Shown here: piece after piece, positions 1 to 4,669 of the stretch
How the letters are laid out: the number at the start of each line of letters is the position of its first letter
Numbering within the stretch: position 1 is the stretch's first letter
Virus record (IMG/VR): IMGVR_UViG_2565956719_000007
Direction: 5' to 3' (one strand)
DNA: 4,669 nucleotides
Source of the DNA: a virus
Lineage: Duplodnaviria; Heunggongvirae; Uroviricota; Caudoviricetes
The notes under the pieces: generated by a model
Databases searched by the model: none
What the model was told of the DNA's origin: nothing
What the model saw: only the letters and a program-made list of their open reading frames with translations
Translations under genes and position numbers: made by a program

Positions 1-51
1 GCAGAAAAAGCTTATTATGCTTCCATCGGAAACGATGATCTGGCAGCCTGA
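1..51 (+). CDS. IS3-family transposase OrfB, C-terminal fragment (start lies upstream of the window)
   Basis: Frame 1 is open from the window edge and translates to AEKAYYASIGNDDLAA before TGA at 49-51, immediately upstream of the terminal inverted repeat. Confidence 0.7.
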   Translation, partial: AEKAYYASIGNDDLAA

Positions 52-68
52 GTTCACAGATAAAACAC

Positions 69-93
69 TCTCCAGGAAACCCGGGGCGGTTCA
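69..93. repeat. Terminal inverted repeat (right end) of the left IS copy
   Basis: TCTCCAGGAAACCCGGGGCGGTTCA matches the reverse complement of 4576-4600 at 23 of 25 positions (9 identical, 2 mismatches AA/TT, 14 identical). A 14-mer inverted match is not expected by chance in 4.7 kb. Confidence 0.85.
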
Positions 94-602
94 CTGTTAA
101 CACTGCCACTGTTGGGCAACTTCAGAACCACTGTCTCACCGCATTATCTCAAGGCGCAACTGAATTAAATATCCATATATCAAGTCAGGGAGGGGAAACT
201 GCTGCTGGCTTTACTGCGTATAACTTTCTTAAGTCACTCCCTGTTACCGTTAGAACTCACAACATAAGCAATGTTGAATCCATAGCTAATATCGTTTTCC
301 TGGCTGGCTCAGAACGTTTCGCAAACCCATTATCAAGATTCCTGTTACATCCTCTATTATGGTGCTTTGCCTCCCCAGCCGCCGACCATGCCAGATTGAG
401 AGAGTACGGGAAATGCCTCGATAACGATCTTGATCGCTTCGTTGAGACGTTCAATATCGACATCGGAACCCATATTAGGTGGGCATCCCTGATAGCAGAC
501 TCGACCATTTTGGATGCTAACAAGGCTCTTGAGCATGGCATAATTAATTCCATAAAAACTGCAAGGCTGGCATCCAATCAGGCAAACTGGTGGGTTGTTT
601 GA
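94..602 (+). pseudogene. ClpP-family (peptidase S14-like) serine protease homolog, 5'-truncated at the IS junction
   Basis: This frame is open from 39 to the TGA at 600-602 but has no ATG/GTG/TTG before 396, and everything left of 94 is IS sequence. By eye it aligns with E. coli ClpP: ISSQGGETAAG to INSPGGVITAG, VESIANIVFLAGSERFANPLSRFLLHP to [46 protein letters not shown] to FLSAPEAVEYGLVDSI. Candidate catalytic Ser (in VESIA) and His (in LLHP) are retained. About 20-45 N-terminal residues appear to be missing. Confidence 0.6.
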
Positions 603-627
603 TGGGTAAATCATGATTACTCCTTAT

Positions 628-652
628 AAAAAACCCACCTGACGGTGGGTTT
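628..652. terminator. Bidirectional rho-independent terminator between convergent genes
   Basis: AAAAAA-CCCACC-TGAC-GGTGGG-TTT: a 6-bp GC-rich stem with a 4-nt loop, an A-run on one side and a T-run on the other. It sits between the + strand stop at 600-602 and the minus-strand stop at 651-653. Confidence 0.6.
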
Positions 653-1100
653 AGTCAAACATAGTGTTTCTAAAGTCTCTCGCATACCCTGCTAACACTC
701 TCATTCTATTATGATTGTTAGCAGACATGTGAGCTACAGGATGAAAAAGAGCAATCAATGAATACCTGTTCTCATCAAAAAGATTTTGTGCATAAACGAG
801 AGCGGTATTGGATGTTTTATGCCACTGCAACTTTTGCGGTGTGCTGATATCTGTGCCATTTTTTATTGGCTCAAATTTATTTTCACCAATTGCTAAATGA
901 AGGTGCATAAGGCCTGCATCTTCAATATCAGGAGGTCGATGATAAGAGGTGTCTCTGCCAAAATAGCTGGGCAACGTTCCCGTAGACTTGTAGATGATAA
1001 AATCATCTACAAGTGTTTGTTTTAAATCAGGAAACTCAACAAAAACCGGGGAGAAAAAATAGTCAAAACTATCCTGATTATATTCCACGGTTACTTGCAT
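651..1100 (-). CDS. YafO-family-like toxin (putative ribosome-dependent mRNA interferase), 149 aa
   Basis: ATG at 1100 is preceded by GAGGT with 5-nt spacing, and that SD overlaps the upstream gene's TGA stop. From memory of E. coli YafO the protein shares motifs: IIYKSTGTLPSYFGRDTSY with ISYKRDGVLPDTFGRD, MHLHLA with HIHLA, LQWHKTS with LRQWSKTS, and a similar length. Family assignment is unverified. Confidence 0.55.
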   Translation of the reverse strand: MQVTVEYNQDSFDYFFSPVFVEFPDLKQTLVDDFIIYKSTGTLPSYFGRDTSYHRPPDIEDAGLMHLHLAIGENKFEPIKNGTDISTPQKLQWHKTSNTALVYAQNLFDENRYSLIALFHPVAHMSANNHNRMRVLAGYARDFRNTMFD

Positions 1101-1108
1101 GTTTTACC

Positions 1109-1675
1109 TCAGTGGAAGTTACCAGAGTGAAACACACGAGTCCCGTGCTCAGCAAGCGCACGCAAACCAGCCATATCTACGGAACTATCAAAAACAACCG
1201 GAACACATGAGCGTTGTTTAATAAGACTATTCAGGTTGGTTACGGCAGATCTGGCATCAGCAACAACGATATAGATATCTCTTGCGATCTCTTTAAAATC
1301 AGCAGAAGCTTCTTTGAATACCGATTTCATTGCCCCTTCAAGTCCTCTCAATTGATGCTCTATCAATCGAGACTTTTCTGGTTCAATGATAGACAACACA
1401 TTGTCTACATTCTCATCGGTAGCGTTTGCAAGAACACGATAAGCGTATTTCAGCATTCGAGACAATTCTTTAATCGAAGACACCGCCTCATGAAGCTCAT
1501 CATTAGCCCGTTCACTGCTGAATGAGGATTGATGGTAAGCGTGCTGAACGTTATCAGTAACAACCACCTCACAACTGAACGCAGAAGCTTGCTGTAATAG
1601 CAAACCTATTGCGACTCCAGCTTTGGCAGCGTTCAAGCTAAACATTTCATCAATCCCATTAGTCTCATTGCTCAT
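1109..1675 (-). CDS. Hypothetical 188-aa protein, first gene of the operon; candidate antitoxin or partner of the YafO-like protein, no recognisable domain
   Basis: ATG at 1675 is preceded by AAGGAGGT with 5-nt spacing, so I prefer it to the TTG at 1705 used by the ORF track. Its stop at 1109-1111 lies 8 nt from the next start. The protein is acidic and probably helical, with no HTH or nucleotide-binding motif evident by eye. Confidence 0.7.
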   Translation of the reverse strand: MSNETNGIDEMFSLNAAKAGVAIGLLLQQASAFSCEVVVTDNVQHAYHQSSFSSERANDELHEAVSSIKELSRMLKYAYRVLANATDENVDNVLSIIEPEKSRLIEHQLRGLEGAMKSVFKEASADFKEIARDIYIVVADARSAVTNLNSLIKQRSCVPVVFDSSVDMAGLRALAEHGTRVFHSGNFH

Positions 1676-1850
1676 ACAAACCTCCTTCTTATCGGAGATT
1701 ATCAATAGCTATGCATCCATTGAATACACGCTATGCGCAATAAGTTTACGTCACGTGATATCATTATGCAACCACCGTTCTATCACCGACTAACTTTACT
1801 CCCACTCCTATACATCATCTGGTATCCTGCGCAAAACTAAGGAGGTTGGT
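1676..1850. promoter_or_regulatory. Divergent intergenic control region between the minus-strand operon and the + strand membrane-protein gene
   Basis: A 175-bp AT-rich gap between divergent starts. On the minus strand a candidate sigma70 promoter is TTGCAT (1771-1766), a 17-nt spacer, then TAAACT (1748-1743). The spacer holds two overlapping 8-bp palindromes, TCACGTGA (1751-1758) and TGATATCA (1756-1763). On the + strand a possible extended -10 TGgTATCCT lies at 1820-1828, before the SD at 1839-1845. Promoter calls are weak matches. Confidence 0.4.
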
Positions 1851-2201
1851 GTGAATGCTCAGTCTGTCATCATGGTTTTCCTTGGGCTGATTGTCGCAAA
1901 ACTATATCCAGACTGGTGGAAAGGGGCATTAGCTACTGTCGCCATCTATTTGCTTTTATCCATCGTTAAGCGATCACTCGCTGAGACCGTAAATCAAGCA
2001 AAACGTTTCTCATTTAAGAGTTTAATAAACTATGTTACTGGGCTTATTTTTTGCCTTTCAATTCTGATCGCTTCGGCTTTTTTGCCCGTATCAATAGCTA
2101 ATTTTTTTGGCGCACCATATGAGGTAGGTTATCTATTCTCTGTTTCCTGTCTTGCCATTGCTCTTCTTTACCTGTGGACGAGATCAAAGAATAAAAATTA
2201 G
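1851..2201 (+). CDS. Small integral membrane protein (116 aa, about 4 predicted TM helices); possible superinfection-exclusion or immunity-type protein
   Basis: GTG start at 1851 with AAGGAGG 5 nt upstream. Four hydrophobic stretches are visible (VIMVFLGLIVAKLY, ALATVAIYLLLSIV, GLIFCLSILIASAFLPVSIANFF, YLFSVSCLAIALLYLW) and the C-terminus is basic (RSKNKN). Function is inferred from context only. Confidence 0.7.
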   Translation: MNAQSVIMVFLGLIVAKLYPDWWKGALATVAIYLLLSIVKRSLAETVNQAKRFSFKSLINYVTGLIFCLSILIASAFLPVSIANFFGAPYEVGYLFSVSCLAIALLYLWTRSKNKN

Positions 2202-2213
2202 CCATCCGTGGCT
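2191..2213 (-). terminator. Candidate rho-independent terminator for the minus-strand transcript, overlapping the 3' end of the convergent membrane-protein gene
   Basis: On the minus strand AGCCA-CGGA-TGGCT (5-bp stem) is followed by AATTTTTAT, 6 nt after the TAA stop of the 670-aa gene. The stem is short. Confidence 0.3.
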
Positions 2214-2218
2214 GCCAG

Positions 2219-4231
2219 TTATTGAGCTTCTTTTTGTGATGCCTGTGCGACTCTGGTGAGCGATTGTGTGACCGTACTGATCGCTCTGTCATATGCTGTG
2301 CTACCTTTTGGCGTATTTGCCAGACGTAACAAGGCATTTCGTATAACAGGGCTTTCGTATGCCTTCGCAGCTCCTCCTACGACACCAGCAGCAGGAACAA
2401 CAAACGCAGCCGTTTTTAGCATCCCCGCTAATACTGCTGCGTTTATGATGCCACCACCAACTAACAATCCATAAAGCTGCTGACCATTTAAGTTTTGAAC
2501 GTTCGCTTTTGCCGCGTGTCTTGTATCGTTGAGGTATTTAATAACGCCGTCCAGTTCCTTTCCATGTACGCCTTTAAAGAAAGTTGCTGATTGCTTCCTG
2601 TTCCGGTGTAACGCATTAATAAACTTTTCAACACTAATATTTCCAGACGGATCAGTCGCCTTATCTACAGCATTCTGAACTATGGCTGCTCGTGCGTTTT
2701 GCCTACCATTGTCATCCAGAAGCCTGTAAAGCTGAGAACGTTCTGATGGGTTTTGGCTAAAAACGAGTTTTGTTACATCCTCAGGTGTAGCCTTGCCGCT
2801 GGCTATTGCCTTTTGAACGCGCGTTCTTCCCATCATGTCATTGAATCTAGCCCATGAGCGATCAACCCTAGACATATTGGCAGCTTCTTCTGAGCCTAGT
2901 TTTTGGGATACTGCTTTTTTCATATCCGCTGTATATGCCTTGTAGACAATATCGCTGGCTTTCTGGAGCGTGTCTTTATCAACAGTCTCGTTTGAATTCA
3001 TGAACCGCTTTCGAAGGTCAGTTCTGTTTTCTCTCGCCAGACGCAGGTCATTGGGTCCGCTGGTGATATCGTCTTTAAATTGCTGCAAGACTTTTACCGC
3101 GGCTCTATCCTGAGATTTGCCCGGGCGGCTTAACACGGCAATCTGATTGTCGATAGCTTTTACCGTGTTTGAGAGATCGACAGGGGTATCCCCCATAGCG
3201 TCAATTATGCGGTTATATCGCTTTCCTGCTGCCTCAATGAATTTTTGTTGCCCTTTAGTCGCAGATTCATAAAGCTGTTTATCAGAAATGCCACCCAGAC
3301 CATCGCTAAATGTTCTGACTAAATTTTCTCGTGCTTGTTGTTGATTCAGCCGATTCTTACCGGTTCCAAAAAAAGGAACTCTTTCGCCTAATGTCTGAGC
3401 CTGACTCTGCATAAAGGTTTTATCTTTCAGCGTGTCACTGGTCATTAACGGCAGGTTTCTTTCCGACGCAAAATCGACAGCAGCCTTTGCTTCCGGTGAC
3501 ATCTCACCGCGAACAGCCCTGGAAACCGCACTAACTGTATTTTCCAGCCCCTTGCCAACACCACCAATGCCAGCAGAAATTACCGTTTGTGCAGGATCAA
3601 TATCTTCTCCGCCAGCAAGGCTGGTGCCACCCTGTAGTGCTAAATCTGTAGCAGCTGATTTCCCTATGGCACCAAGCACCGTTCCAGCCCTGCCCGCTGG
3701 TGTGAACGCTAACGCATTAGCAAGAAACGAAGTCAGGTCTTGCGGTGATAAACCTGGCTTGTTCAGGGCATAATCACCGGATGGCAGGGAAACGATAGTG
3801 TTACCCTTCTCATCCTGCCTTAATTTCGCCCCCATACTCTGAAGAATCTTTTCCTGAGACGCGTCGGAGCCGAAAAGTTGAGACCATCCAGCCTTCAGGG
3901 CATCCATGCTTAGTGAGTTCAACTCAGGGGCAGCCCCAACATTTTGCAGTCTCTCCATTTCTGGTGTCATTCGGCTTTCACCGGTAACGGCATCGCGCAT
4001 TGCAGCACCTAAAACAGCCCCTTGCTCAGCAGAGCGATCTAGTCCTTCCTTCTGCTGAGTGGCAAGCTGTGCATATCCTGATGCAAGTGAGTTGTCTGCT
4101 GGCGATTGCTGAACACCTTGTTGTGTTGGCGCTGACTGACCAGCAAAATACTCATCAATGGCGGACCCAATATCTTCCGTGCTCGTACCATCAGGAAAGG
4201 TAAATGTCTTACCATTTGCAGTTACTTTCAT
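2219..4231 (-). CDS. Large 670-aa protein, probably a phage DNA-ejection (injection) protein of P22-like podoviruses, gp16/gp20-like
   Basis: A 2 kb ORF with ATGATGA at its start overlapping the upstream gene's TGA. The second ATG (4231) is chosen because GGTGG lies 4 nt upstream of it. The protein is Ala/Gly/Gln/Ser-rich with a about 40-residue hydrophobic segment near the C-terminus (LYGLLVGGGIINAAVLAGMLKTAAFVVPAAGVVGGAAKAY). The N-terminus MKVTANGKTF..PDG.S.EDIG.AIDEYF resembles my recollection of P22-like ejection proteins. It is certainly a real gene; the product call is tentative. Confidence 0.5.
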   Translation of the reverse strand: MKVTANGKTFTFPDGTSTEDIGSAIDEYFAGQSAPTQQGVQQSPADNSLASGYAQLATQQKEGLDRSAEQGAVLGAAMRDAVTGESRMTPEMERLQNVGAAPELNSLSMDALKAGWSQLFGSDASQEKILQSMGAKLRQDEKGNTIVSLPSGDYALNKPGLSPQDLTSFLANALAFTPAGRAGTVLGAIGKSAATDLALQGGTSLAGGEDIDPAQTVISAGIGGVGKGLENTVSAVSRAVRGEMSPEAKAAVDFASERNLPLMTSDTLKDKTFMQSQAQTLGERVPFFGTGKNRLNQQQARENLVRTFSDGLGGISDKQLYESATKGQQKFIEAAGKRYNRIIDAMGDTPVDLSNTVKAIDNQIAVLSRPGKSQDRAAVKVLQQFKDDITSGPNDLRLARENRTDLRKRFMNSNETVDKDTLQKASDIVYKAYTADMKKAVSQKLGSEEAANMSRVDRSWARFNDMMGRTRVQKAIASGKATPEDVTKLVFSQNPSERSQLYRLLDDNGRQNARAAIVQNAVDKATDPSGNISVEKFINALHRNRKQSATFFKGVHGKELDGVIKYLNDTRHAAKANVQNLNGQQLYGLLVGGGIINAAVLAGMLKTAAFVVPAAGVVGGAAKAYESPVIRNALLRLANTPKGSTAYDRAISTVTQSLTRVAQASQKEAQ

Positions 4232-4575
4232 CATTCCACCGTAAATTGAATGCCTGATTTTGACGTGTAGCTACCTCCTGCTGATTGCTGAGTAGCTGGC
4301 TGTTGCCTTGATGATTTCTTCCCGCCATTACCAACATTAACGTTATATTGCTGGTTGTAATTGTCGGTATATTGCTGAATGTCGCGCATTGATTGTTGCA
4401 GCGCTTCAGGACTTGAGAAATCAGGCTTTGGCATACCCTGAAAATACCTATTGGCCTCTGCTTCGGTGTTGATGCCAGATGCCCCCATATCTCGGGCTGC
4501 TGCAATCCCCTGATTTTGCATTTTGCCCATGATTCGCTGTGCAGCGTTGTATAGCCTCCTCTCCTCAACACCAGA
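4231..4575 (-). pseudogene. Upstream ejection-protein-like gene, 5'-truncated by the IS insertion (C-terminal 114 codons remain); translationally coupled to the 670-aa gene
   Basis: The frame is open from the IS junction to the TGA at 4233-4231 and ends ...[19 protein letters not shown]. The part of the track ORF beyond 4575 is IS sequence with only a TTG at the window edge. Internal ATGs at 4528 and 4519 lack a convincing SD. Confidence 0.5.
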
Positions 4576-4600
4576 TGAACCGCCCCGGGAATCCTGGAGA
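4576..4600. repeat. Terminal inverted repeat (left end) of the right IS copy
   Basis: TGAACCGCCCCGGGAATCCTGGAGA is the inverted partner of 69-93 and begins with the TG dinucleotide typical of IS3-family ends. Confidence 0.85.
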
Positions 4601-4629
4601 CTAAACTTCCTGAGAAAGAGGTAAACAGG

Positions 4630-4669
4630 ATGACTAAAAATACTCGTTTTTCCCCCGAAGTCCGTCAAC
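4630..4669 (+). CDS. IS3-family transposase OrfA, N-terminal fragment (continues beyond the window)
   Basis: ATG at 4630 with a canonical SD; translation is [13 protein letters not shown]. It was missed by the ORF track because it runs off the window edge. Confidence 0.8.

Follow-up and report, generated by a model that had tools for sequence, protein, structure and literature searches.

A short ClpP paralogue gene of P22-like Escherichia coli prophages, interrupted by an IS3-family element

The closest characterized relative of the protein considered here is ClpP1 of Pseudomonas plecoglossicida (PpClpP1; PDB 9UXT). PpClpP1 is an N-terminally truncated homotetradecamer with an axial pore of 42.7 Å, and its peptidase activity is weak, with Ser73 and His96 essential and the third residue (Pro151) dispensable (PMC12900304). 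It does not bind ClpX; together with canonical ClpP2, which does, it forms a more active mixed tetradecamer, and phages are not mentioned in that paper (PMC12900304). Mixed rings are also formed by other accessory ClpP paralogues, for example the atypical ClpP2 of Pseudomonas aeruginosa, and are described as a 'rheostat' on regulated proteolysis (PMC13056064). As for the genomic setting, the P22 genes downstream of mnt are orf59a and sieA, and in CUS-3, UTI-1 and APEC-1 the corresponding region, from gene 16 to gene 9, is an 'ant moron' of six genes, most of them without a known function (PMC2629481).

The DNA analysed here (4,669 bases; hereafter the window) derives from a P22-like prophage; at each end it runs into a copy of one IS3-family element, the two copies having the same orientation. 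Bases 94–4577 are 100% identical to prophages of E. coli S88, APEC O1, ATCC 11775 and many ST95-type strains; in those genomes the prophage lies at a tRNA-Arg gene, beside intS. It carries an acyltransferase gene, a tailspike gene (annotated as endosialidase in FY26 and BEN5202), and P22-type head, ejection-protein (genes 7, 20 and 16) and immunity I genes, and is of the CUS-3/UTI-1/APEC-1 type. The gene next to the left IS copy, clp, is read here, with a probability of roughly 80%, as a recently inactivated moron gene of such a CUS-3/APEC-1-type prophage, which specifies a natively short paralogue of the PpClpP1 family and is independent of the neighbouring yafO-like gene pair. The features on which the analysis draws are as follows.

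1–93, plus strand: 3′ end of the left copy of the IS3-family element, identical to the element annotated in E12053
94–602, plus strand: clp, a short ClpP paralogue gene truncated at its 5′ end, 100% identical to positions 8001–8509 of the S88 locus (L001)
279–281, plus strand: TCC codon of the catalytic Ser72 (Ser73 of PpClpP1), invariant in alignments A1 and A2 and aligned with Ser73 of 9UXT
348–350, plus strand: CAT codon of the catalytic His95 (His96 of PpClpP1), invariant in the family
498–500, plus strand: codon of Asp145, at the canonical third triad position (Pro151 in PpClpP1), a variable column
628–650, no strand: hairpin rich in GC (AAACCCACC-loop-GGTGGGTTT) that separates two convergent units, clp (plus) and yafO-like (minus)
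4576–4669, plus strand: start of the right-hand IS copy, oriented like the left one (tgaaccgccccgggaatcctggag..., then the transposase start)

Relationship of the clp product to known ClpP proteins

A preliminary description of the window had proposed that clp encodes a ClpP-family homologue, and this was borne out by profile search: against Pfam CLP_protease (PF00574; cut-off 20.2 bits) the window fragment scored 43.7 bits and the intact protein 44.4 bits, the latter match beginning at profile position 37 of 182. Peptidase S49 (SppA or lambda gpC type), which had been named beside it, was not among the families in the Pfam scan at E<=1. The NCBIfam ClpP models gave scores of 19–40 bits, below their cut-offs of 228–361, and a scan of PADLOC-DB 2.0 returned no family at E<=0.1.

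Searched against PDB, a profile of 53 relatives hit 9UXT at E 3.6e-50, far above all other structures, and the single intact protein matched 9UXT at E 1.6e-35 over residues 3–175; canonical ClpPs appeared in the same structure search near 1e-7 to 1e-13. An AlphaFold2 model (pLDDT 92.9) was built not on the exact sequence of the intact S88 protein but on P0001, a protein that shares 97% identity with it. In Foldseek, this model was superimposed on 9UXT with TM 0.94 and rmsd 1.5 Å at 38% identity, and on many solved canonical ClpPs with TM 0.80–0.84 at about 20% identity. At E<=1e-30 the short ClpP family comprises 212 clusters (50% identity), mostly of 180–200 aa.

The retained candidate catalytic Ser and His of the preliminary description were confirmed as Ser72 and His95, each of which, like Gly43 of the oxyanion-loop GG, is found in 137 of 137 family cluster representatives. 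The expected ClpP fold was likewise recovered. At the canonical third triad position this protein has Asp145, in a column that is occupied by E, Q, K, R, D, N or S across the family. The N-terminal axial-loop region, which serves pore gating and ClpX/ClpA engagement, is natively absent, with the first core strand at the very start of the intact protein. A comparison of the E. coli gene with that of Pectobacterium gave a dN/dS of 0.075, with synonymous sites near saturation, which denotes strong purifying selection. The clp family is thus a constrained Ser-His ClpP paralogue without the N-terminal gating and docking region.

With PpClpP1 the clp product shares end-to-end homology, a native N-terminal truncation, a similar length (178 versus 183 aa), an aligned Ser/His pair and a third triad position that is not conserved. 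It differs from PpClpP1 in having Asp145 in place of Pro151 and in belonging to a prophage-borne branch as opposed to a non-phage chromosomal neighbourhood, and the window copy is in addition truncated. Canonical E. coli ClpP (peptidase S14) has the fold (TM about 0.8), the oxyanion-loop GG and the Ser-His pair in common with it, whereas the clp product lacks the N-terminal axial loops, scores far under the NCBIfam cut-offs and is not a host housekeeping gene product. The concept of a second subunit that has no ClpX engagement of its own and pairs with canonical ClpP is shared with the P. aeruginosa ClpP2-type paralogues, a likeness by analogy only, as the sequences are no more alike than those of ClpPs in general (about 20% identity).

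A phage-borne ClpP-fold domain is also characteristic of phage head-maturation proteases, and a displaced or degenerate prohead protease has to be weighed as the origin of clp. The top NCBIfam and PHROG matches are indeed ClpP-related head-maturation proteases (NF045542, 49.3 bits; phrog_94, E 7e-21), and one phage record labels clp as such. However, the NF045542 score is far under the cut-off of 120, and the full-length match of the clp product is a cellular-type tetradecameric ClpP paralogue. Unlike the head-maturation proteases, clp stands alone without fusion to a scaffold or capsid protein, outside the head modules and on the opposite strand, and in unrelated prophages it turns up in the tail, lysis or early region. 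P22-type phages recycle their scaffolding protein and are not known to use a prohead protease. A prohead protease is therefore highly improbable as the source of clp, in line with the preliminary description, which had set clp apart from the virion operon by its strand, opposite the phage structural genes.

A recent IS-generated pseudogene

The intact gene, as found in S88 (L001 7973–8509; WP_000903306.1), encodes 178 aa, and window base 94 corresponds to its nucleotide 29. Codons 11–178 occupy bases 96–599, followed by the stop codon TGA at 600–602, with bases 94–95 as the remnant of codon 10. Missing from the window are thus 28 nt (nine codons, the ATG included, and one base of the tenth) and 10 residues (MLHTIHFLCP). 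The preliminary description had estimated a loss of 20–45 N-terminal residues; this was too high, because the family is natively short at its N-terminus and the remaining shortfall relative to canonical ClpP is no damage. Its claim that the start codon is absent and the 5′ end disrupted by an IS was upheld: the IS ends at base 93, and the first in-frame ATG, GTG or TTG, a TTG at 396, lies downstream of the Ser72 and His95 codons. Nor did a functional start that would make the gene intact come to light, and as no in-frame ATG, GTG or TTG precedes base 396, the window copy is a pseudogene. That the break is recent follows from the 508 bases that survive, which match intact copies at 100% identity. 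In the window, clp is also separated by the IS from the upstream mnt-like repressor gene, whose stop codon overlaps the ATG of clp (TAATG) in intact prophages. Window clp is therefore an ordinary pseudogene, recently created by an IS from a gene for a known kind of protein.

The disrupting element, presumably IS629/IS1203-like, is identical to the 'IS3 family transposase, programmed frameshift' element of E12053 (L003 4838–6051 plus its end). The left copy has its transposase stop, TGA, at 49–51 and finishes at base 93 with the terminal inverted repeat (...ggggcggttca). The right copy begins near 4578, with a boundary ambiguous by 2 nt, and matches E12053 from L003 4785 onward; it sits in the homologue of P22 gene 20, and homology to the intact prophage stops at 4577. 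No complete E. coli genome had the exact two-IS configuration of the window in one contiguous stretch, and one genome, E12053, shares its clp junction.

Three independent insertions of this IS type were found at the clp 5′ end, in different strains and within 4 bp of each other. A reverse-oriented copy is present in FY26 (with a GCC duplication), NCTC11151 and BEN5202, the right-hand clp/IS junction of BEN5202 being identical to that of FY26; a forward copy with a CCC duplication is present in E10; and a forward copy abutting CTG is present in the window and E12053. Derivation of the window's left junction by IS-IS recombination from an FY26-type insertion was considered and rejected, as a different IS end abuts clp and the join is 3 bp away. 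The preliminary description had suggested a search for the missing 5′ fragment upstream of the left IS. In FY26 and E10 it does persist beyond the IS, next to mnt, as no more than the 28-nt clp 5′ end; in E12053 the IS is instead preceded by a piece of the tailspike gene, which shows that the clp 5′ end has been deleted there together with mnt, arc and ant.

The two sites of IS insertion in the window each lie within a copy of the octamer ATGCCCTG of the intact prophage (L001 7996–8003 and 12482–12489), which has four copies in 20.5 kb versus 0.77 expected. These sites suggest a sequence-specific target preference of the IS, rather than selection against clp. More generally, the CUS-3-type prophages of several avian and human ExPEC strains (L003, L004, L005 and L006) are riddled with the same IS, which has hit the tailspike gene, ant, gene 16, gene 20, gene 7, gp10 and terminase; inversions and deletions between IS copies in these prophages represent ongoing IS-driven decay.

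RefSeq/PGAP lists an 'intact' Clp protease of 180 aa in E12053 (WP_071787753.1; L003 6060–6602), with an ATA start inside the IS, and one of 189 aa in E10 (WP_261175599.1; L006 7252–7821), with a start inside the IS end. If these calls of 180 and 189 aa were taken at face value, the IS-joined allele would remain functional, its product being a chimera whose N-terminus is encoded by the IS end. However, the proposed ATA start (window base 60) has no Shine-Dalgarno-like sequence upstream, an in-frame TGA lies at 36–38, the IS transposase is read in a frame other than that of clp, and the chimera replaces residues 2–7, the first core beta-strand, modelled by AlphaFold2 at pLDDT 96. A functional chimera is thus scarcely credible, and the IS-started coding sequences are probably annotation artefacts that hide a pseudogene.

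The mnt-clp module and its distribution among prophages

In the intact CUS-3-type prophage, clp follows a gene for an 82-aa ribbon-helix-helix (RHH) protein of the Arc/Mnt family, the stop and start codons overlapping as TAATG, and this mnt-like gene is divergent from arc-ant exactly as is mnt of P22. The position of clp is between tailspike gene 9 and ejection gene 16, on the strand opposite genes 16 and 20. The mnt-clp arrangement is kept in a P22-like prophage of Pectobacterium, with 80% protein identity and an upstream protein that matches Pfam Repressor_Mnt. As orf59a and sieA are the P22 genes downstream of mnt, clp fills the sieA-side slot. Like sieA/orf59a of P22 (PMC2629481, PMC10883804), clp occupies the slot that follows mnt in the interval from gene 9 to gene 16, has the same orientation and is presumably expressed from the prophage; yet there is no sequence relationship to SieA, the clp product being a predicted soluble protease subunit and SieA a membrane protein.

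A small RHH gene that comes first and overlaps the next gene by its stop codon is also the architecture of a toxin-antitoxin pair, and the mnt-like protein has a weak match to Pfam FitA-like_RHH, so that an RHH antitoxin with a protease effector might be envisaged. Against this, the RHH gene is divergent from arc-ant like P22 mnt, its Pectobacterium homologue matches Repressor_Mnt, and most members of the clp family have no RHH neighbour at all. A toxin-antitoxin-like pair is accordingly a most improbable account of the two genes; the real partner of clp in P22-like prophages is the upstream mnt-like repressor gene.

On its other side the module ends at the hairpin at 628–650. The 71-nt fold has a ΔG of −19.7 kcal mol−1 (z −2.7), and the same 42 bp are annotated as 'terminator' in Salmonella phage Emek; homology with other phages ends at this site. 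The hairpin marks the end of a mobile mnt-clp module. Without the yafO-like pair, this module was found at 98.7–99.5% identity in six phages, of which E212, EC.P3 and phiv205-1 are P22-like and PhiR12_1, PhiR12_4 and PhiR12_5 are lambda-like, the latter harbouring mnt-clp with ant inside the tail gene cluster. As the block sits in a lambda-like siphovirus (PhiR12_1), the immunity I module with clp has recently moved between phage morphotypes. In PhiR12_1 (L008 2495–4507) the ant/mnt/clp block is located between the tail-tip genes K and L and is about 98.7% identical across clp. The clp gene is undiscussed in the paper on phage E212.

Beyond the hairpin lies the yafO-like pair, which consists of a toxin gene of the YafO family (651–1100, minus strand; Pfam 78.9 bits) and an upstream gene (1109–1675, minus strand) for a 188-aa protein that matches no Pfam or NCBIfam family and has phrog_8416 as its sole match. 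Because it is not YafN, the 188-aa protein is a candidate new antitoxin partner. The PADLOC scan gave nothing for the toxin, nor for the product of a further gene at 1851–2201 (plus strand), a multi-pass membrane protein of 116 aa (109 aa in RefSeq) that adjoins gene 16 on the opposite strand. This membrane protein also has no match in Pfam, PHROGs or NCBIfam and is without the SieA motif FxRYPxEAxxFNK.

From a protease beside a toxin module, the preliminary description had raised the possibility of an original three-part system of protease, toxin and partner. clp and the yafO-like pair are indeed adjacent in CUS-3-type prophages, and in such a system the protease would degrade the partner or antitoxin. 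Type II antitoxins are in general removed by cellular proteases, which would suit such a scheme. The genomic evidence points the other way. clp (plus strand) and the pair (minus strand) are convergent, with the terminator hairpin between them, and the mnt-clp junction is present in 127 (intact in 121 of those) of 5,426 complete E. coli genomes, the yafO-like pair in only 55. The clp module thus lacks the pair in roughly half or more of the clp-carrying E. coli genomes, as it does in the six phages, and no YafO_toxin neighbour was seen in any other clp context examined; the co-occurrence that the preliminary description had looked to among intact homologues was absent from all the distant ones examined. 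On these grounds the three-part idea is unsupported and very unlikely to hold, and clp is better read as a moron gene independent of the pair.

The wider family was sampled in Enterobacterales members and one Chromobacterium. All of these distant relatives (52–60% identity) reside in prophages, each as a lone gene whose neighbours are on the other strand, at the following sites.

Klebsiella-type lambdoid prophages: clp homologue between the lysis cassette and the small terminase gene
Proteus prophage: clp homologue between N and the erf/ssb early genes
Pantoea Mu-like prophage: clp homologue between the tape-measure and DNA-circulation genes
Citrobacter P2-like prophage: clp homologue between the invertase gene and a tail-fibre assembly gene
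Chromobacterium prophage: clp homologue between the tail-fibre and lysis genes

Temperate phages of Enterobacterales thus carry PpClpP1-type short ClpPs repeatedly, as a moron of one gene. No report of this recurrent moron status was found in the literature, in which phage- or prophage-encoded ClpP morons receive generic mentions only (for example, a staphylococcal prophage clpP homologue, not further characterized). Scans for sigma-70 promoter and terminator consensus around clp, covering the window, the S88 locus and two stand-alone homologues, gave nothing above shuffled expectation; as they were uninformative and also missed the obvious hairpin, no promoter claim here is based on them.

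In Pseudomonas the setting is different. At least 80 Pseudomonas genomes (L029 and L030–L108), most of them from the putida group, carry a PpClpP1 orthologue at 80–99% identity. In P. plecoglossicida, clpP1 has PLD-type and LPG-synthase-type genes upstream, a KGG stress protein gene downstream and porin genes nearby. The idea that PpClpP1 is itself prophage-borne was therefore rejected, its neighbours being lipid-metabolism, stress and porin genes. Since the Pseudomonas context is non-phage and the sampled Enterobacterales context is all prophage, the family has a chromosomal and a prophage-borne branch.

Candidate roles of the intact protein

In the mechanism we propose, intact clp comes second in the mnt operon, which lies within the 'ant moron' (immunity I region) that separates gene 9 from gene 16. 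In P22, mnt encodes a prophage-expressed maintenance repressor, and for this reason the clp product may well be made in the lysogen; expression from the mnt promoter is what we infer from operon position only. The intact product is predicted, by homology to PpClpP1, to assemble into two heptameric rings like those of ClpP, with a pore that is unusually open; in this assembly the Ser72-His95 pair would cut peptides with a weak, ATPase-independent activity. As the N-terminal loops are absent, it is proposed not to dock ClpX or ClpA on its own. Its subunits might instead mix with host ClpP rings and so retune host Clp proteolysis in the lysogen. Assembly, activity and mixing with E. coli ClpP are all extrapolated from a relative of 38% identity that lives in a non-phage chromosomal context. 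In the lineage of the window this chain would have been cut when the IS3-family element landed 28 nt into clp, an event that took away the start codon and first core beta-strand and uncoupled the gene from mnt and its promoter.

The slot of clp brings to mind a more specific role, that of a prophage-expressed anti-phage or superinfection-exclusion factor acting by proteolysis of incoming phage proteins. The gene lies downstream of mnt, where P22 has orf59a and sieA; in other prophages it stands by itself, on the opposite strand, at sites typical of moron or exclusion genes; and it is under strong purifying selection. Nevertheless, it matches no PADLOC defence model at E<=0.1, no literature report was found, and the P. 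putida-group orthologues are ordinary chromosomal genes. Position alone, moreover, does not separate defence from other lysogenic-conversion functions. The gain from clp could lie in the control of lysogeny, in keeping out other phages or in the fitness of the host. We regard exclusion as an unlikely function of clp, and a generic modulation of host proteolysis as the most likely functional theme.

A broader proposition, put forward tentatively and with more doubt than confidence, is that prophage short ClpPs are an unrecognized, lysogen-expressed class of subunits that join or compete with the host ClpP barrel and retune ClpXP/ClpAP for the benefit of the prophage. If so, the gain might be stabilized lysogeny (for example through controlled turnover of the antirepressor or another regulator in the immunity I circuit) or exclusion of superinfecting phages, and Pseudomonas ClpP1 would be a chromosomal relative of a largely phage-carried family. 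Should the subunits mix with host ClpP, temperate phages would gain a direct handle on the regulated proteolysis of their host.

The window copy, as a dead gene, is itself of little consequence, and its value is corrective and contextual: the apparent large N-terminal loss is a native trait of the family, not damage, and the protease lies outside the toxin module. A ClpP paralogue family that was structurally characterized only in 2026, and treated as a chromosomal drug target, has a prophage branch that travels as a single-gene moron among many unrelated temperate phages of Enterobacterales, in slots usually held by lysogen-expressed exclusion or conversion genes.

One allelic difference of the CUS-3-type gene was also recorded. 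Codon 100 (393–395) specifies Cys in this allele (HPLLWCF) and Gly in most relatives, other E. coli copies included; Cys100 is located five positions past the catalytic His, within the segment that forms the bortezomib pocket in PpClpP1.
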